Source of the DNA: a virus
Direction: 5' to 3' (one strand)
Virus genome (UHGV): UHGV-0240820
DNA length: 24,873 nt
How positions within the stretch are numbered: the first letter of the stretch is position 1; each line of letters begins with the position of its first letter. The notes beneath the pieces were generated by a model. The model was not told the origin of the DNA. It worked only from the letters and a program-made list of their open reading frames with translations, and searched no databases. Positions 2,999-24,786 of the stretch are shown in pieces. The position numbers were made by a program, and so were the translations under genes.

Positions 2999-3025
2999 AG
3001 CCAGCTCATCGGCTGGCTGTTTGTG
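2999..3025 (+). terminator. weak terminator-like hairpin after the terminase large subunit
   Basis: AGCCAGC (2999-3005), loop TCATCG, GCTGGCT (3012-3018), then GTTTGTG. The T tract is poor. Confidence 0.35.
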
Positions 3026-3034
3026 ACATGTCAC
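3023..3034. repeat. palindrome GTGACATGTCAC (second copy)
   Basis: Exact 12-bp match to the core of the 757-770 palindrome. Confidence 0.6.
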
Positions 3035-3038
3035 GGCG

Positions 3039-3461
3039 TTAGAAGGTTATTTTATCGAATGCGGCGTTGATTGCCTTGGCGTCCTGCTCAGCACCAACCA
3101 CATCAAGTAAAGATCTTTTACTAAGCACTTCAGCCAGGCATTGTAACTTCATGTTGTATAAGTTTTCGCGCATGTAATCATCATCACTTTTTTCTTTGGC
3201 GTATACAGCGCGAGAAATATCAAACACATTGCCTTTTTCCATTTCAGTTTTCTGCGCTGAAATCCAGTCATGGCAAGTAACTCCTATTCCATGGTCATCG
3301 CTAAGCGTTAACCCGGCAAGTCGCTCACCTGGAATTGCTTCACAAAGCATTTCATTTCCTGCAAAAACACCATAAAAAATTGAATCATCACCCTGAACAA
3401 TGCGTACATATTTGCACGGCCATTCATTTAGATATTTAGCTAGCATGTCGGCTGTTTTCAT
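3039..3461 (-). CDS. hypothetical protein (140 aa), reverse-oriented moron
   Basis: Clean ORF with AAGGTGA 4 nt upstream of the ATG on the minus strand. Convergent with the terminase genes. No recognisable motif. Confidence 0.55.
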   Translation of the reverse strand: MKTADMLAKYLNEWPCKYVRIVQGDDSIFYGVFAGNEMLCEAIPGERLAGLTLSDDHGIGVTCHDWISAQKTEMEKGNVFDISRAVYAKEKSDDDYMRENLYNMKLQCLAEVLSKRSLLDVVGAEQDAKAINAAFDKITF

Positions 3462-3471
3462 GATCTCACCT

Positions 3472-3496
3472 TAAAAAAATGCCCGGCGAACCGGGC
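3472..3496 (-). terminator. intrinsic terminator (minus strand)
   Basis: On the minus strand: GCCCGG, loop TTCG, CCGGGC, followed by a T7 run (plus-strand A-run 3473-3479). Confidence 0.7.
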
Positions 3497-3659
3497 GAAC
3501 TGGAAGCAATGAGTTATGCCTTCCGTGGCTGTACTGGTTTACAGCATGAAGCCATCGCAATGGCGCCCTGCTGTAAAAAGGGCGGTGATAGTCCTTCAAG
3601 GGAAACCATCACCGCCAAGCCCCTGGAACTTCTGGCATCACGGTCCTTAGGCGTGATTC

Positions 3660-3736
3660 TGGCGTGGCATGCAGGATTCGAACCTGCGACCAACCGCTTA
3701 GAAGGCGGTTGCTCTGTCCAACTGAGCTAATGCCAC
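3660..3736 (-). tRNA. tRNA-Arg (anticodon UCU)
   Basis: Minus-strand 77-nt cloverleaf: acceptor GTGGCAT/ATGCCAC, D stem GCTC/GAGC, anticodon stem ACCGC/GCGGT with loop CTTCTAA, T arm GCAGG-TTCGAAT-CCTGC, discriminator G, encoded CCA. Differs from host argU at several positions (from memory), so it is phage-encoded. Confidence 0.85.
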
Positions 3737-4058
3737 AACGCTGAGAGCACTTAGCCTGTTAAGGCGCCACACTTTGTCGCGGCTCCATAAATGCTCTCAT
3801 CGTTGTACCCTCGTCTCTTCCGAGGCGTCACACCGAATCGCCGGGATGGTGAATCCCCGTGCGCGGAATAAAACCGCTCGACTTGCACATTCCGGCTACC
3901 TGGTTCGTTTGCCACAGCCAGGGAGGGTGCCCCTTAAACGCATCCAGACCGCTATCGGCGCATGTGCCATACGCCGTACTGCTCAAAATAAAAGCTCACT
4001 CCACCTGTTCAATTTAACGACAAGCCAGTCAGGTTAGTAACCGGAATGAACTCTTTGG

Positions 4059-4073
4059 TTACCTGAAAGGTAA
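4059..4073. promoter_or_regulatory. dyad TTACCTGAAAGGTAA (operator-like)
   Basis: One of six TTACC-N5-GGTAA sites; intergenic. Confidence 0.45.
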
Positions 4074-4163
4074 TAATTCGCGCATTAAATGTCAACTGTC
4101 TACGATAAATAAATCATATGTGGTTAAATTGGTAATAATTTAATTGCGTACGGAGTCATTGAT

Positions 4164-4370
4164 ATGTGCATGGGTAGCTCACCATCAGTGCCTGCAACAC
4201 CAGAAGTTCAGGCAGCACCACAGGAGCAGGATGCCGCCGTTGTTGATGCCCGCGACGAAGAAACTCGTCGCCGTCGCGCTGCTGCTGGTCGTAGTTCTAC
4301 GCTGCTTACCGGTTCTCAGGGCGACACATCAACTGCTAATACCAGCGGTAAAACGCTGCTTGGTCAGTAA
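4164..4370 (+). CDS. hypothetical small protein (68 aa)
   Basis: ATG preceded by CGGAGTCATTGA, a 12-nt string identical to the portal translation-initiation region at 4372-4383. Low-complexity Ala/Arg-rich product, so coding status is uncertain. Confidence 0.35.
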   Translation: MCMGSSPSVPATPEVQAAPQEQDAAVVDARDEETRRRRAAAGRSSTLLTGSQGDTSTANTSGKTLLGQ

Positions 4371-4384
4371 CCGGAGTCATTGAA

Positions 4385-6064
4385 ATGGCGGAAACAACTA
4401 AAGAGCGATTGAACAAACAGTTCGCACAACTTGAAAGCGAGCGTCAGTCGTTCGAGCCGCACTGGCGCGAGTTGAGTGATTACATCAACCCGCGTGGTTC
4501 CCGCTTTCTGACTTCTGAGGTTAACCGTAACGATCGACGCAATACACGCATTATTGATTCGACCGGGACTATGGCGGCGCGCACTCTCGCCAGCGGCATG
4601 ATGTCAGGCATCACAAGCCCCGCGCGTCCGTGGTTTCGCCTGGCTACGCCAGATCCTGAAATGATGGATTATGGCCCTGTTAAGTTGTGGCTTGAGGCGG
4701 TGCAGAACCGCATGAACGATATGTTCAATAAGTCGAATCTCTATCAGTCGCTGCCGCAGTTATACGGAAGCCTCGGCACATACAGCACTGGTGCAATGGC
4801 AGTGCTGGAGGATGACGAGGACATCATTCGCACAATGCCATTCCCGATAGGCAGTTACTACCTGGCTAACTCACCTCGTGGCAGTGTGGACACCTGTTTT
4901 CGCAAGTTCTCTATGACTGTTCGTCAGCTTGTTCAGGAGTTCGGGCTAAATAACGTCAGCGAATCCGTAAAAAGCATGTGGGAAAGCGGAACCTACGAGA
5001 AGTGGATTGAAGTGATGCATTCGGTTTACCCGAACATTGACCGCGATACATCGAAGCTGGATAGCAAGAACAAGCCATTCAAATCGGTTTATTACGAGGT
5101 TGGTGGCGATAACGACAAGTTGTTGCGTGAGTCCGGATTCGATGAGTTTCCAATTATGGCTCCGCGCTGGGAAGTTAACGGCGAAGATGTTTATGGATCA
5201 TCATGCCCGGGTATGCTGGCGCTTGGACCTGTTAAGGCATTGCAGCTTCTCCAGAAGCGCAAGTCGCAGTTGATTGATAAAGCCACCAATCCGCCGATGG
5301 TTGCTCCGACTTCCCTCAAGAATCAGCGCGCCTCCCTTCTTCCTGGCGACATCACGTATATCGATCAGATTACTGGTCAGGATGGTTTCAGGCCTGCTTA
5401 TCTGGTTAACCCCAGTACAGCAGATTTGGTGGCAGACATTCAGGACACTCGTCAAATCATTAACAGCGCCTACTTTGTCGATCTGTTCATGATGTTGCAG
5501 AACATCAATACCCGCTCGATGCCTGTTGAAGCGGTGATCGAAATGAAAGAAGAAAAACTTCTGATGTTGGGGCCGGTTCTGGAGCGTCTGAACGACGAAT
5601 GTCTTAATCCTCTCATTGACCGCTCTTTCTCGATGATGGTGCGTAAAAACATGCTGCCGCCACCGCCTGACGCGATGGAAGGCATGCCCCTGAAGGTCGA
5701 ATACATTTCCGTCATGGCTCAGGCGCAGAAGTCTATCGGCCTGTCCAGTCTGGCGTCCACGGTTAACTTCATTGGTCAACTTGCGCAAGCGAAACCAGAA
5801 GCTCTCGACAAACTCAACGTTGATCAGGCGATCGATGCATTCGCTGATATGTCCGGAGTGTCTCCAACCGTCATTGTTCCGCAGGAACAGGTTGAGCAGG
5901 CTCGCCAGCAACGGGCACAGCAACAACAGCAGCAACAAATGATGGCGATGGGGATGGCGGCGGCACAGGGTGCCAAGACGCTAAGCGAAGCTAAAACTTC
6001 GGATCCGAGTGTTTTGTCAGCTATGGCGAATGCAGTTAGTGGTCAGGGTGGGCAATCACAATGA
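4385..6064 (+). CDS. portal protein (podovirus type)
   Basis: 559 aa, located after the terminase genes. Gln/Met/Ala-rich C-terminal tail (QQRAQQQQQQQMMAMGMAAAQGA) resembles the T7 gp8 C-terminus as I recall it. Confidence 0.85.
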   Translation: MAETTKERLNKQFAQLESERQSFEPHWRELSDYINPRGSRFLTSEVNRNDRRNTRIIDSTGTMAARTLASGMMSGITSPARPWFRLATPDPEMMDYGPVKLWLEAVQNRMNDMFNKSNLYQSLPQLYGSLGTYSTGAMAVLEDDEDIIRTMPFPIGSYYLANSPRGSVDTCFRKFSMTVRQLVQEFGLNNVSESVKSMWESGTYEKWIEVMHSVYPNIDRDTSKLDSKNKPFKSVYYEVGGDNDKLLRESGFDEFPIMAPRWEVNGEDVYGSSCPGMLALGPVKALQLLQKRKSQLIDKATNPPMVAPTSLKNQRASLLPGDITYIDQITGQDGFRPAYLVNPSTADLVADIQDTRQIINSAYFVDLFMMLQNINTRSMPVEAVIEMKEEKLLMLGPVLERLNDECLNPLIDRSFSMMVRKNMLPPPPDAMEGMPLKVEYISVMAQAQKSIGLSSLASTVNFIGQLAQAKPEALDKLNVDQAIDAFADMSGVSPTVIVPQEQVEQARQQRAQQQQQQQMMAMGMAAAQGAKTLSEAKTSDPSVLSAMANAVSGQGGQSQ

Positions 6065-21183: not shown

Positions 21184-21226
21184 TTACCTTTAAGGTAATA
21201 GTACGCTATTCACCCCCGGTCTGCAA
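21184..21226 (-). promoter_or_regulatory. candidate sigma70 promoter with overlapping operator dyad
   Basis: Minus strand: -35 TTGCAG (21221-21226), 17-bp spacer, -10 TACTAT (21198-21203), overlapping dyad TTACCTTTAAGGTAA (21184-21198) by 1 bp. Confidence 0.45.
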
Positions 21227-21270: not shown

Positions 21271-21927
21271 TCAGAAGAACCCTGCTTTGTCGTTGATGTA
21301 CTCCGCGTGCGTCTGGATATCACGCAGGCATTTGCTCACACCGACGATGTAGCAGAACATGGTGGTCAGTTCCGCCGCCGCGCCCGATACGTCGTGCCCG
21401 TCTTCCTGTAACTGGTTCAGCAGATTCATCAGCAGTGAGTTCTCCGTCAGGCCGAGAACACCAGACGGAGAATGAATCAGGCTGCGGTAGCCGGGCTTCA
21501 GCGGGGCACTGTATTCTTTTTTGTCTTCCAGCTTGATCGCCTCCATAATGGCGGGCATGAAGCCTGACAAGACCTTCTCCACTTTTGTTTCTTGTTGTCT
21601 TAAACGTTTCTCGCATTCAATGAAGTAGCGTCGCACCTGGCGACCTTTTTCGTTACGCTCGACCATCGCCAGCTCTTTGGCTGTATCAAGGGTGAGGTGG
21701 TACTCTTTGCGGTTGTGGCCGCCTCTACCAGATGTTTGCTTTCCCAAATTGGAAAGCAAAATATAGTCTTGATTTTCAATGAATTCGTATTCTGATATGC
21801 GATTTGTAATCCATGCTGCAAACACCTTTTTAACACCTAAAAAAGCGTGCAGATCGCGGGCATTACAAAGTAGGGCTGTTTCGTTAGATATAGTGCCGTT
21901 GAATACGGGGATGAGTTGAGCGTTCAT
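21271..21927 (-). CDS. phage antirepressor (AntA/Bro-N-type N-terminal domain plus C-terminal domain)
   Basis: N-terminal sequence ([12 protein letters not shown]...[32 protein letters not shown]) matches the conserved AntA-type antirepressor domain as I recall it. GGAG RBS. C-terminal 80 aa are paralogous to ORF 23077-23334. Confidence 0.75.
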
Positions 21928-22108: not shown

Positions 22109-22200
22109 ATGCGCCACTTAGTAATCCGGGAGACCAATCCCGGCACTGGATTTTGCCAGTGCCCGATTACTATGGCACAAGAGGAGTGCGATGTAAATTT
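22086..22200 (-). ncRNA. structured non-coding leader or sRNA candidate
   Basis: No ATG on the minus strand across 22086-22200. Hairpins at 22126-22143 (6 bp) and 22142-22163 (8 bp) share two nucleotides. Ends in a terminator-like hairpin. Confidence 0.3.
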
Positions 22201-22213
22201 ACCGCAAAGGTAA
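22199..22213. promoter_or_regulatory. dyad TTACCGCAAAGGTAA (operator-like)
   Basis: On the minus strand a -10-like TATCAT overlaps the dyad by 1 bp, with TTGATT 17 bp upstream as a candidate -35. Confidence 0.45.
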
Positions 22214-22291: not shown

Positions 22292-22306
22292 TTACCTTTA
22301 AGGTAA
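22292..22306. promoter_or_regulatory. dyad TTACCTTTAAGGTAA (operator-like)
   Basis: Identical to the 21184 site; 21 bp upstream of the ATG of the 242-aa gene; preceded on the plus strand by AGATAT. Confidence 0.45.
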
Positions 22307-23410: not shown

Positions 23411-23425
23411 TTACCCGAAAGGTAA
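23411..23425. promoter_or_regulatory. dyad TTACCCGAAAGGTAA (operator-like)
   Basis: Lies between the divergent antirepressor-paralog and tail-spike starts. Confidence 0.45.
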
Positions 23426-23529: not shown

Positions 23530-24786
23530 ATGACGGTCTCAACCGAAGTTGACCACAACGAATACACCGGTAACGGCGTTACGACATCGTTTCCGTATAC
23601 TTTTCGAATTTTCAGAAAATCAGACCTGGTTGTTCAGGTGTCTGATCTGAACGGAAACGTAACAGAATTGGTCCTGGATACCGGTTATACGGTAACTGGG
23701 GCGGGCACTTATAGTGGCGGTTCTGTGGTTCTTCCGTCTCCGCTTGCTACTGGATGGCGAATTACGATAGATCGTGTGCTTGATGTAGTGCAGGACACAG
23801 ACCTTCGCAATCAGGGAAAATTTTTCCCCGAAGTGCATGAAGATGCCTTTGACTACCTGACGATGCTGATCCAGCAATGTTTTGGGTGGTTCAGACGTGC
23901 ATTGATGAAACCATCTTTGCTTGCAAAATATTACGATGCAAAGCAAAACAAAATTTCTAACCTTGCAGATCCATCATTTGAGCAGGACGCTGTAAATAAT
24001 CGCTCAATGCGTAATTATGTCGATGCTGCAATCGCCGGAGTTGTTGGTGGTTTTGGTTGGTTTATTCAGTATGGTTCTGGGGCTGTGTACCGAACGTTCC
24101 AGGATAAAATGCGTGATGCTATTAGCCCCAAAGATTTTGGAGCTGTTGGTGATGGTATAAATGACGATTCCACTGCAATAAGCGCGTGCCTTGAAGCCTC
24201 ATCTCCAGGTTATAAAATTGACGGATTAGGGCTTACTTTTAAAGTATCAACTCTTCCGGATGTCAGTCGATTTAAAAATGCTCGTTTTTTATTTGAGAGA
24301 ATACCGGGCCAGCCTCTTTTTTATGCTTCTGAAGATTTTATCCAGGGAGAGTTATTTAAAATTACAGATACACCGTGGTACAACGCCTGGACGCAGGATA
24401 AAACGTTTGTATATGACAATGTCATCTATGCGCCTTTTATGGCTGGAGACCGCCATGGTGTAAATAACCTCCATGTTGCATGGGTTCGCTCAGGAGATGA
24501 CGGGAAGACCTGGACAACGCCGGAATGGCTTACAGATTTACATGAAAACTATCCCACAGTTAACTATCACTGCATGAGTATGGGGGTTGTCAGAAATCGC
24601 CTTTTTGCTGTAATTGAGACGCGGACCGTGAGAGGAAATAAACTGCAGGTTGCAGAGTTGTGGGATCGCCCAATGAGTCGCAGCCTTCGCGTTTATGGTG
24701 GTATAACGAAAGCAGCAAATCAGCAAGTCGCTTATATTCGCATTACTGATCACGGATTGAACCGCCCCGGGAATCCTGGAGACTAA
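23530..24786 (+). CDS. tail spike/fiber protein, 3'-disrupted by IS insertion
   Basis: GGAG RBS. N-terminal ~140 aa resemble the T7 gp17 particle-binding domain (from memory). DFGAVGDGINDD motif and an Asp-box SGDDGKTW (24491-24514). From ~24758 the reading frame runs into IS terminal sequence; the last ~9 codons and the stop are IS-derived. Confidence 0.7.
   Translation: MTVSTEVDHNEYTGNGVTTSFPYTFRIFRKSDLVVQVSDLNGNVTELVLDTGYTVTGAGTYSGGSVVLPSPLATGWRITIDRVLDVVQDTDLRNQGKFFPEVHEDAFDYLTMLIQQCFGWFRRALMKPSLLAKYYDAKQNKISNLADPSFEQDAVNNRSMRNYVDAAIAGVVGGFGWFIQYGSGAVYRTFQDKMRDAISPKDFGAVGDGINDDSTAISACLEASSPGYKIDGLGLTFKVSTLPDVSRFKNARFLFERIPGQPLFYASEDFIQGELFKITDTPWYNAWTQDKTFVYDNVIYAPFMAGDRHGVNNLHVAWVRSGDDGKTWTTPEWLTDLHENYPTVNYHCMSMGVVRNRLFAVIETRTVRGNKLQVAELWDRPMSRSLRVYGGITKAANQQVAYIRITDHGLNRPGNPGD

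Follow-up and report, generated by a model that had tools for sequence, protein, structure and literature searches.

The window analysed here is a 24,873-nt stretch of the virus genome UHGV-0240820, from an epsilon15/phiV10-like phage. Between terL (1473–2948) and the gp3/portal genes (4164–4370 and 4385–6064), its minus strand carries in succession a promoter with an overlapping operator, an 82-nt leader, a large structured RNA, a tRNA-Arg(UCU), two sRNA-like modules (S1 and S2) and a Shine-Dalgarno sequence with an open reading frame. Phage phiV10, which is 98% identical, has the tRNA in the same place between terL and gp3/portal. The tRNA (3660–3736, minus strand) was recovered by ARAGORN, with the anticodon TCT at position 35, and by the Rfam tRNA model RF00005 (73.3 bits, gathering score 29), and its CCA end is encoded. 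A sequence-only reading of this DNA had placed it between the terminase and portal genes, where it indeed lies, and had proposed that it is embedded in a long structured non-coding unit of the minus strand, possibly with additional RNA elements in its flanks. Our analysis bears this out: covariation-backed structure is found on both sides of the tRNA, as a conserved pseudoknotted RNA upstream and a tandem of two sRNA-like modules downstream. We consider it about 90% probable that positions 4095 to 3473 of the minus strand form a single non-coding unit, and that this unit includes a new RNA family. Judged from its sequence elements, it would be a repressor-controlled early-lytic transcription unit whose products are RNA only.

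A sigma-70-type promoter can be read on the minus strand at 4067–4095, with a -35 box TTGACA (4095–4090), a 17-nt spacer and a -10 box TACCTT (4072–4067). A consensus promoter scan picked a neighbouring register and not TTGACA/TACCTT itself. The module CGTAG-N4-TTGAC(A/C)-N17-TACCTT is present in 36 of 118 unique upstream regions, and among relatives its spacer is constant in length and variable in sequence. The dyad at 4059–4073, pointed out beforehand, proved to be TTACC-N5-GGTAA, a repressor operator that overlaps the -10 box and the start site of this conserved promoter. Six exact copies and one with a single mismatch occur in the window (at 848, 866, 4059, 21184, 22199, 22292 and 23411) against 0.46 expected, and none of 100 shuffles reached seven. 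The other copies flank a gene for an AntA antirepressor. At the corresponding position, the GenBank record of epsilon15 has annotations for 'repressor' and for IHF binding. In 62 of about 130 unique loci, the element is closely preceded by CI-like repressor genes of the same strand, and in P1 the structured RNA sits inside the C1-controlled ban operon.

The 82-nt leader (3977–4058) is variable, and since the distance from the operator to the first helix ranges from 5 to 124 nt among relatives, it lies outside the conserved fold. Its last 29 nt (4005–3977) resemble, by eye, the 3' strands of helices H8 and H7 of the structured RNA, which suggests that the leader tail may be the remnant of a tandem copy. 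One other locus (L023) holds two full copies of the structured RNA.

The stretch between operator and tRNA (3737–4058) had been described as about 320 nt of GC-rich sequence with no credible reading frame. It measures 322 nt with 54% G+C, compared with 48% for the whole window, and contains short ORFs only; homologues differ by 1-nt indels within the conserved core, so no reading frame is preserved. Most of it belongs to a conserved structured RNA of about 243 nt (3734–3976, minus strand) with eight helices and a pseudoknot. H1 (3976–3968/3964–3956) is followed by H2 (3951–3945/3902–3893), which encloses the variable H3 (3944–3903), and by the invariant joiner GAAUGUGCAA (3892–3883). H4 (3882–3880/3842–3840) contains a variable hairpin (3879–3858) and H5 (3857–3854/3846–3843), and the pseudoknot pairs CACC (3851–3848) with GGUG (3834–3831). 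H6 (3825–3821/3813–3809) leads to H7 (3807–3801/3740–3734) and, within it, H8 (3798–3788/3753–3743), which surrounds a variable insert (3787–3754). Invariant unpaired nucleotides are abundant around the pseudoknot, while the peripheral hairpins vary.

The decisive evidence that this structure exceeds chance, as read from the alignments, is covariation among homologues. RNAalifold on 27 diverse members gave 46 pairs, 19 of them compensatory. Over 112 distinct sequences, 97.9% of alignment cells can pair and 29 of 50 pairs show compensatory double changes; slid partners pair in 31–44% of cells, and none of 500 shuffles reached the observed values. One pair of the pseudoknot is C-G in 56 sequences, A-U in 23 and unpaired in none. 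A lack of covariation in homologues had been named beforehand as the outcome that would refute the structure, and we found the opposite both here and downstream of the tRNA. Frequent G-U pairs in the helices assign the RNA to the minus strand. Folding energy is a weaker signal, with a modest margin over shuffles for the single-sequence fold of the element (z = -2.1) and z = -6.2 for the whole 604 nt. Searches with Rfam 15 (4227 models) returned no match over the element, either in the window (E up to 10) or in the loci of ten other members (E up to 1). The conserved joiners were examined for complementarity or motifs and gave nothing convincing; a pairing of GGUGUGAC with the 1400 region of 16S rRNA was dropped, because those bases form the pseudoknot. 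We conclude that the large fold defines a new family of RNAs found in temperate phages of enterobacteria.

The covariance model built for this family (R1) scores 211 bits in the window and finds full-length matches in about 147 loci, and the element is present in 1840 of 5426 complete E. coli genomes (about a third); the copy in E. coli MCJCHV-1 is 100% identical. It is found in P1/P7, in Stx2 phages, in epsilon15/phiV10-like phages and in lambdoid phages that have no annotated N gene, a group to which some Stx2 phages belong; in none of them is it annotated. A full element also occurs on a 1.7-kb metagenomic contig assigned to Bacillota, probably by mis-binning, and an apparent member in an Oscillospiraceae MAG was rejected as a chance 19-mer match with no model hit. 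A full-text literature search with invariant 13–15-mers of the element returned no paper. The svsR RNA, considered as a candidate prior description, is different, being a 77-nt stretch inside cI (PMC12803456); the Pas sRNAs (bioRxiv 10.64898/2026.05.13.724894) are different RNAs, as is HnrS, which lies in late genes (PMC13502914). The Rfam families Esr41, AgvB, AsxR and STnc100 gave no match in our searches.

Apart from the locus with two copies, each phage has one element, which invariably precedes early ORFs and shares their direction. The neighbourhood is assembled in several ways. In some lambdoid phages the order is element, S1 and genes; in epsilon15-like phages it is element, tRNA, S1 and S2; and in BUCT709-type loci only an sRNA module and a strong terminator follow. 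The ban operon of P1 contains a dicF-like sRNA with a strong terminator, two tRNAs, tciABC, tRNA-Ile, the element and ban; about 60 nt separate the element core from the ribosome-binding site of ban that follows it, an arrangement that looks like a 5' UTR. Because the module order differs between phages, we regard the modules as separate RNA genes. The genes downstream share no function (ban, yfdP-like genes and several PHROGs of unknown function). In epsilon15 itself most of the element has been deleted, by recombination between repeats within it, and the terminator and ORF were retained, which argues that the element is accessory and not essential.

A same-strand tRNA adjoins the element in 48 of 153 loci; it is Arg-UCU where it follows the element and Ile2-CAU where it precedes it. 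In the window the first two tRNA bases are the last two of the 3' strand of H7, and relatives without the tRNA read GUUGUGGUGAAUCACG across the junction, which shows that the tRNA was inserted exactly between H7 and S1. With the 5' end of the tRNA placed right against the final helix of the preceding RNA, RNase P cleavage would provide a processing signal.

Downstream of the tRNA, S1 (3575–3657) consists of a 5' hairpin (3657–3637), a variable single-stranded 'seed' (3636–3617) and a terminator hairpin (3616–3581) followed by CUUUUU. The 9-bp hairpin noticed earlier on this side of the tRNA, GGCGGTGAT/ATCACCGCC, turned out to be the base of this 14-pair hairpin, with CTTTTT behind it. S1 is conserved in 21 unique relatives and its terminator stem covaries; the hairpin base UUGGCGGU...ACCGCCCUUUUUA matches DicF of K-12. 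In 25 unique relatives, GCUGUGUGUAGU occupies the seed slot, and RprA has this very sequence in its 3' part; the seed of the window is a different one. The window S1 has no Rfam hit to DicF (RF00039) or RprA (RF00034), and the S1 of relatives stays below threshold for both (DicF 27.7 bits against a gathering score of 48, RprA 50.2 against 70).

S2 (3473–3574) comprises a hairpin (3573–3542), a stem-loop (3524–3502), the seed CAUUGCUUCCAGU (3511–3499) and a terminator (3496–3481) with its A-U7 tail reaching 3473. This terminator, GCCCGG-TTCG-CCGGGC plus A-T7, is the strong terminator that had been noticed earlier beyond the 9-bp hairpin. Its stem covaries (GCCCGG/CCGGGC, GCCCAC/GUGGGC, GCCCGC/GCGGGC), UUGCUUCCAGUU is invariant in 13 diverse relatives, and across the S1-S2 tandem 6 of 42 pairs are compensatory with the unpaired seed invariant. 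The 13-nt block of S2 is identical to K-12 RyhB and placed in the same way ahead of the terminator, and it recurs downstream of the element, at variable distances, in 25 unique loci. By sequence identity, then, S2 carries the core seed of RyhB, the sRNA that regulates iron in the host. It is not a member of the RyhB family (RF00057), for the window scores 18.1 bits (E 2.6) and the S2 of one relative (L081) 27.4 against a gathering score of 55. S1 and S2 would thus be partial seed mimics, not orthologues of RyhB or RprA.

Right after the U-tract of S2 comes the Shine-Dalgarno sequence AAGGUGA of a 140-aa ORF (3461–3039, minus strand), which belongs to PHROG 4846, of unknown function (E 8e-87), and has no Pfam hit. 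Many relatives retain the junction of terminator, AAGGUGA and start codon in front of a different ORF. As there is no promoter-like site between the tRNA and the ORF, we predict that it is expressed only by read-through. Between the converging terL and 140-aa ORF lies a terminator-like hairpin (2999–3018), whose equivalent in phiV10 is annotated as a rho-independent terminator.

The preceding description leads us to a tentative mechanism, held at slightly less than even odds, in which the large 5' RNA is a free-standing, stable early RNA that is excised beside tRNAs and acts in trans. Mechanistically, once the repressor leaves the operator at 4059–4073, sigma-70 RNA polymerase would start near 4060 and produce a primary transcript of about 590 nt. 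RNase P would cut at the tRNA 5' end (3737/3736), releasing the leader and the fold of about 243 nt as the 5' RNA, and tRNA-Arg(UCU) would mature from the same transcript, the adjacent tRNAs serving as excision signals. S1 and S2 would behave as Hfq-dependent sRNAs ending at their own terminators, S1 as a DicF-type scaffold with an exchangeable seed and S2 pairing with host mRNAs through the RyhB core seed, and a minority of polymerases would read through into the 140-aa ORF. Through its invariant unpaired joiners and pseudoknot, the 5' RNA would engage a conserved partner in the early phase of the lytic cycle, whether a host protein, a host RNA machine or the RNA itself through self-assembly. 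Support for a free-standing RNA comes from the repressor-controlled early context found throughout, with H1 as little as 5 nt from the operator, and from the shuffled module order, the tRNAs on either side and the RNA-only loci of BUCT709 type. Counting against it are the same-direction position upstream of early ORFs, the nutL/putL position in lambdoid phages without annotated N, the terminators between element and promoter-less ORFs in several contexts, the 5' UTR-like placement in P1, the z of -2.1 for the element and the sub-threshold RyhB, DicF and RprA scores. The facts of position and terminators fit a cis-acting role at least as naturally as a free-standing one.

Such a role, in which the 5' RNA would be a leader that modifies RNA polymerase in cis by processive antitermination or anti-Rho action, is the strongest alternative, and we regard it as rather unlikely. 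As an antiterminator it would work like HK022 put or Bacillus EAR, belonging to neither, and would carry early transcription across the sRNA terminators and the long untranslated leader as far as the early genes. EAR offers a precedent, as a pseudoknotted antiterminator located within an operon. The element directly follows the early-left promoter, at the place of nutL/putL, in lambdoid phages without annotated N, and no N family occurs among the 25 most frequent of the 60 PHROG families hit by 55 representative downstream ORFs, a weak negative. According to a 2025 paper, phages with this type of early-left operon and no N gene may use RNA-mediated antitermination (PMC12315714), and mEp460 and mEp390, both carriers of the element, come from a phage collection that has been described as Nus-dependent (PMC11893012). 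Also in favour, terminators stand ahead of promoter-less ORFs, the terminator-SD-ATG junction is conserved, the downstream genes are heterogeneous, as a general transcription device would lead one to expect, and H1 has ACGGCG...CAUGCGUCG in common with putL stem I. Against this, the chance expectation for the 9-nt identity with put is, by our own estimate, about 0.07, and model R1, run with filters off on the whole HK022 genome and the HK639 early region, scored below 9 bits at best. There is also a single copy per phage, and R1 with filters off found no second, divergent copy near the rightward promoter or in the rightward operon of mEp460. No strong intrinsic terminator was seen in the early-left operon of mEp460, and in the ban operon of P1 the sole strong terminator precedes the element, with none after it. 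Where canonical Hfq-type terminators with U-tails follow, they imply that termination there matters, and epsilon15 has lost the element while keeping terminator and ORF. The region was also compared with a lambda-type nut site, made up of a single-stranded boxA, a boxB hairpin and an N-like protein encoded nearby. A boxA-like UGCUCUY occurs within the 3' strand of H8, but there it is part of the helix, and in several members covariation has changed it from the boxA sequence. In some lambdoid members the element is followed, at a distance of about 10 nt, by a hairpin whose GGCUGA loop is conserved.

It is less probable still that the 5' RNA is a self-processing ribozyme, setting the 5' end or stability of the downstream RNAs, or a ligand-sensing, riboswitch-like leader that gates early expression by a host signal. 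Invariant unpaired nucleotides around a pseudoknot, framed by variable hairpins, are typical of active sites and ligand pockets, and the element stands at the 5' end of the transcript or, in P1, right after a tRNA and before the ribosome-binding site. However, no known ribozyme or riboswitch family matched in the Rfam searches, and with at least 190 nt the element is larger than the known small self-cleaving classes. For a riboswitch, moreover, one would look for a conserved adjacent expression platform, whereas here there is none and a tRNA or sRNA module can be inserted directly after the element; the downstream genes are also functionally unrelated to each other. Lastly, a coding function of plus-strand ORFs, or a DNA-level recombination or binding site with incidental RNA structure, is highly improbable: depositors placed hypothetical proteins on the other strand (PhiV10p04, mEp460 gp37 and ORFs in PhiR63_1 and BUCT709) and the epsilon15 deletion arose between repeats within the element, but the conserved core is broken by 1-nt indels, the variable hairpins change length freely, and the helix substitutions are compensatory and include G-U pairs possible on the minus strand only. 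With its short ORFs, 3737–4058 was accordingly rejected as protein-coding; the GenBank CDSs run antisense to the RNA, PhiV10p04 to the tRNA itself, and several of these 'hypothetical proteins' are probably spurious.

Taken globally, we see an even chance that the 243-nt RNA founds a new class of complex-fold phage RNA with an activity of its own, and that the unit is a modular array of non-coding RNA cassettes by which temperate phages of enterobacteria, including P1 and Stx phages, reprogramme the host early in lytic growth with seeds copied from RyhB and RprA. That activity might be processive antitermination of a kind that needs no factor and is unrelated to put and EAR, or the RNA might, as a free molecule, capture or disable a conserved host machine; enzymes of RNA processing, the translation machinery and defence nucleases are candidates for the latter. 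In either case, a large covariation-supported fold has been overlooked in P1, Stx2-converting phages and the epsilon15/phiV10 group, which rank among the most thoroughly studied bacterial viruses, and in 1840 of 5426 complete E. coli genomes. The element lies where one would expect to find the means by which lambdoid phages with no N gene cross their long untranslated leaders and terminators.

Among known systems, the put sites of HK022 and HK639 come close, as structured phage RNAs just after a repressor-controlled early promoter in lambdoid phages without N, with many conserved unpaired bases and with the 9-nt strand CAUGCGUCG of putL stem I that also occurs in H1. But put is about 70 nt long (126 nt in HK639), has two stem-loops and occurs in both early operons, whereas the element has a core of at least 190 nt with eight helices and a pseudoknot, occurs once per phage, and is found also in non-lambdoid phages and in mid-operon in P1 ban. 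Membership in the HK022 put family was rejected on this difference in architecture and because the covariance model finds nothing in HK022 or HK639.

GOLLD and ROOL, too, are non-coding RNAs with complex folds and without a known function that occur in phages and prophages, and they often adjoin tRNA genes. They differ in size (about 600–800 nt) and in their carriers (Firmicutes and environmental phages), and have no sequence or model similarity to the element, which is enterobacterial and lies inside repressor-controlled early operons. Both are listed among RNAs that form RNA-only assemblies (bioRxiv 10.1101/2024.12.08.627333). If the element is free-standing, it would join a small set of large bacterial and phage RNAs of unknown function, in a genetically tractable host.

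In the T4 tRNA cluster, tRNAs and the stable RNAs 'species 1 and 2' are co-transcribed and separated by RNase P and other host RNases; T4, however, is virulent and its RNAs are different, while the unit described here is repressor-controlled in temperate phages. Early operons of immunity regions in which processed small RNAs come before the protein genes are also known from prophage Qin (dicBF) and from P1 (the 'dicF-like region' of the ban operon). S1 and DicF have homologous terminator hairpins, and in P1 one C1-controlled operon combines a dicF-like sRNA, three tRNAs and the element. On the other hand, the DicF seed is absent from S1, whose seeds are RprA-like in relatives and unique in the window, and Qin has no counterpart of the large RNA. 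RyhB and RprA, finally, are matched in their seeds: the 13-nt block CAUUGCUUCCAGU of S2 and the 15–19-nt block (AAUU)GCUGUGUGUAGUCUU in the S1 of relatives have the orientation seen in the host genes and, as there, each immediately precedes a rho-independent terminator, but the remainder is unrelated (Rfam scores of 18–27 against 55 and of 50 against 70). The modules suggest that phages copy the seeds of host sRNAs (RyhB of the iron response, RprA of the RpoS/envelope network) onto portable DicF-type scaffolds, and such seed mimicry, if true, would be a direct route to rewiring host regulation upon induction.

The genome is that of an epsilon15/phiV10-like podophage of the genus Uetakevirus, with 98% identity to phages PAS61 and phiV10 over 3000-4400; the stretch 3737-3990 recurs with 100% identity on the E. 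coli MCJCHV-1 chromosome. The genes terS (802-1476), terL (1473-2948), gp3 (4164-4370) and the portal gene (4385-6064) lie on the plus strand, and all meaningful features of the terL-gp3 interval lie on the minus strand. The plus-strand ORFs 3479-3730 and 3774-4037 have counterparts in phiV10, mEp460, PhiR63_1 and BUCT709 listed in GenBank as 'hypothetical proteins'; such CDSs (e.g. PhiV10p04, mEp460 gp37) lie on the strand opposite the tRNA, sRNA modules or structured RNA, and are probably not genes. Elsewhere, the endosialidase N-terminal and beta-propeller domains in ORF 23530-24786 (Pfam E 1e-70) indicate that the phiV10-like prophage probably targets the K1 polysialic-acid capsule.

The sequence-only reading had reported a dyad at 4059-4073, which proved exact, preceding a GC-rich stretch, here measured as 322 nt (3737-4058; 54% G+C vs 48% in the window). 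The dyad overlaps a minus-strand promoter sequence, TTGACA-17 nt-TACCTT. Of 118 unique regions upstream of related loci, 36 contain this promoter/operator module; its spacer is constant in length and variable in sequence, and the module stops 5-124 nt short of the first conserved helix. Repressor and IHF binding are annotated at the matching place in the GenBank record of epsilon15. The dyad is a repressor operator placed on this promoter. Because it overlaps a promoter module conserved in relatives, we infer that the unit is transcribed, most likely as an early transcript repressed in the lysogen. The motif TTACC-N5-GGTAA would be expected 0.46 times in the window but has seven copies when one mismatch is allowed, and six of these are perfect. 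The further copies comprise two adjoining sites inside terS (848-880; 848 exact, 866 with one mismatch) and four (21184-21198, 22199-22213, 22292-22306, 23411-23425) that flank an AntA-type antirepressor gene (21271-21927) in the region near 21-23.5 kb. This scatter suggests a dispersed, P1-C1-like repressor regulon; no repressor gene was identified among the window ORFs checked.

That the flanks of the tRNA might carry additional RNA elements was borne out on both sides. Upstream, sensitive BLAST matched 3733-3977 to unrelated phages (80% identity in the lambdoid PhiR63_1, 75% in phage BUCT709), with invariant blocks between variable hairpins whose changes compensate. An invariant 19-mer, GGTAGCCGGAATGTGCAAG, occurs in at least 120 viral contigs and in 24 GTDB species genomes, nearly all Enterobacteriaceae. 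By BLAST the element is present in 83 phage records, including P1, P7, D6, SJ46, cdtI, mEp460, mEp390 and Stx2a/Stx2c/Stx2k phages. Of 5426 complete E. coli genomes, 1840 carry it, and 554 of the places lie on P1-like plasmids; none of the sampled E. coli genome matches carries an annotated RNA feature over it.

RNAalifold predicted 46 pairs from 27 diverse members, 19 with compensatory changes, and a covariance model built from this alignment returned full-length matches of 113-241 bits at about 147 loci (calibration was shortened, so E-values are rough; the bit scores are large). For the structured RNA at 3976-3734 (minus strand; helices H1-H8 plus a pseudoknot), 97.9% of cells across 112 distinct sequences hold a standard pair, against 86.9% in shuffled and 31-44% in slid controls. 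Both sides are altered in 29 of 50 pairs, and none of 500 shuffles attains any observed measure. The alignment used for these counts was fitted to the covariance model; the slid controls and an independent MAFFT/RNAalifold result agree. In the pseudoknot, the H5 loop (C/A)ACC pairs with a downstream GGU(G/U), switching perfectly between C-G (56) and A-U (23). Abundant G-U pairs (U-G in 84 sequences at one position and in 85 at another, for example) are possible only on the minus strand, which is therefore the RNA sense. The fold is complex, with some 60 invariant unpaired bases.

The Rfam scan proposed earlier found no Rfam 15 family for this RNA. Full-text search found no paper with its invariant strings; subscription journals fall mostly outside that search, and an earlier description is possible. 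As the 5' RNA passed none of the membership tests run, we rate it a new RNA family inside a known kind of arrangement. One viral contig (L023) carries two full copies of the structured RNA about 800 nt apart (4734-4969 and 3938-4164, minus strand), and the leader of epsilon15-like members (4005-3977 in the window) looks as if it were left over from the 3' end of another copy, since lost, that lay upstream. The covariance model also matches the H6-H8 hairpin part on its own, weakly (24-27 bits) in P1-like loci (noted alongside: L151 1964-2061 and 1707-1800) and more strongly (48.8 bits) at L071:2535-2624 and L061:89-205. The variable H8 insert of Stx2a_WGPS2 (L153, ~3190-3290) and of locus L100 (~3700-3760) contains tRNA-like T-arm and acceptor fragments, GGUUCAAUUCC and AGGUUCGAUUCCUUUCCCGCACCCA, on which ARAGORN calls no tRNA.

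The predicted tRNA-Arg(TCT) at 3660-3736 (minus strand) was recovered as the sole ARAGORN tRNA of the window (Rfam, 73.3 bits). Its 5' end shares two bases with the end of helix H7; comparison with tRNA-free relatives, in which H7 runs directly into the next module, shows a precise insertion. A same-strand tRNA abuts the element in 48 of 153 loci, either Arg-UCU, 3' of it, or Ile2-CAU, 5' of it.

Downstream, 21 unique relatives, some of them lacking the tRNA, keep 3660-3473, which folds into two sRNA-like modules (consensus of 42 pairs, 6 compensatory, with strictly conserved unpaired segments). The first, S1 (3657-3575), opens with an invariant 5' hairpin and closes with a terminator hairpin, a variable single-stranded slot lying between them; the 9-bp pairing noticed before, GGCGGTGAT/ATCACCGCC, is the base of this 14-pair hairpin (3616-3581), followed by CTTTTT. 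The hairpin base and tail match K-12 DicF. The slot reads GCUGUGUGUAGU(CUU) in 25 unique relatives, a perfect match to 3' sequence of RprA, whereas the slot of the window differs; the Rfam RprA model gives 50.2 bits in relatives, under its threshold of 70. The second module, S2 (3574-3473), places an invariant UUGCUUCCAGUU immediately before the expected strong terminator, a canonical intrinsic one (3496-3473, GCCCGG-TTCG-CCGGGC plus A-T7). Its 13-mer CAUUGCUUCCAGU is identical to the K-12 RyhB core and turns up again, at varying distances downstream of the element, in 25 unique loci. Rfam thresholds rule out membership of S1 and S2 in the RyhB, RprA or DicF families; from their architecture, we infer that they act as Hfq-type sRNAs. 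After the U-tract come AAGGUGA and a start codon, a junction kept although the ORF behind it differs between relatives, and no promoter-like site was found ahead of the ORF. In BUCT709 (vB_SmeS_BUCT709, L005; listed host Stenotrophomonas), an enterobacterial-type RNA accompanies a module that shares 19 identical nt with E. coli RprA: either the module has spread over a long distance or enterobacteria are among the natural hosts of the phage.

The setting of the element differs between phages. In lambdoid phages, a CI-like repressor gene on the same strand ends 100-190 nt upstream in 62 of ~130 unique loci, and in PhiR63_1 the terminator of this gene and apparent operators fill the interval; the element is therefore the first item on the early-left transcript, with yfdP/yfdQ-type genes next. 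In the lambdoid phage mEp460 (L152), 706-894 on the minus strand matches Rfam C4 antisense RNA (83.6 bits) and isrK (67 bits) beside the antirepressor gene, an RNA immunity module of the P1 immI type. In P1 the element, without H7/H8, is part of the ban operon under C1 control; tRNA-Ile2 ends 15 nt upstream of it, and the ban ribosome-binding site follows ~60 nt downstream. The annotated P1 'dicF-like region' (L151 769-870) ends in a strong, RprA-terminator-like terminator (835-854) and looks like an S1-type module heading this operon. In epsilon15/phiV10-like phages the element has its own operator-controlled promoter. Of the element, epsilon15 itself (L002 2182-2302, minus strand) keeps no more than H1, half of H2 and the first part of H3. 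These are joined to the S1 terminator loop, apparently through a deletion between two UUCCCUUGAUGCU copies; as this phage is viable, the element is dispensable in the laboratory. A CCCUUGA loop motif is common to H3 and the S1 hairpin in many members, and the epsilon15 record annotates an RNase III site near the fusion on the opposite strand.

Taken globally, we favour a free-standing RNA, at a probability of roughly 45%. Module order is shuffled between phage types, P1 having its 'dicF-like region' and strong terminator first and the element last; in some phages the transcript consists of RNAs only, with a strong terminator at its end; and flanking tRNAs would offer ready-made RNase P/3'-processing punctuation. 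Together with the complex fold and the dispensability in epsilon15, these features argue for this reading. A cis-acting antiterminator is a weaker candidate, and on balance doubtful. The element occupies the nutL/putL position in lambdoid phages without an annotated N gene, early-left operons of exactly the kind for which Casjens and colleagues suggested RNA-mediated antitermination (PMC12315714); two carriers, mEp460 and mEp390, belong to a collection whose phages are described as Nus-dependent (PMC11893012), and terminators separate the element from promoter-less ORFs. Among the 25 most frequent of the 60 PHROG families hit by 55 representative downstream ORFs there is no N family, which is weak evidence of its absence. 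However, the covariance model does not match put, each phage has one copy, no strong terminator follows the element in mEp460 or P1, and the downstream Hfq-type terminators need to work. Both readings rank above a ribozyme or riboswitch, which is improbable, and a coding or DNA-only role, which is very improbable.

Known parallels to the unit, in which one phage transcript likewise supplies small RNAs and tRNAs, are the dicBF operon, the P1 ban operon and the T4 tRNA cluster. The 5' RNA is alike in position to put and EAR, and, as a large phage RNA beside tRNAs, to GOLLD and ROOL.
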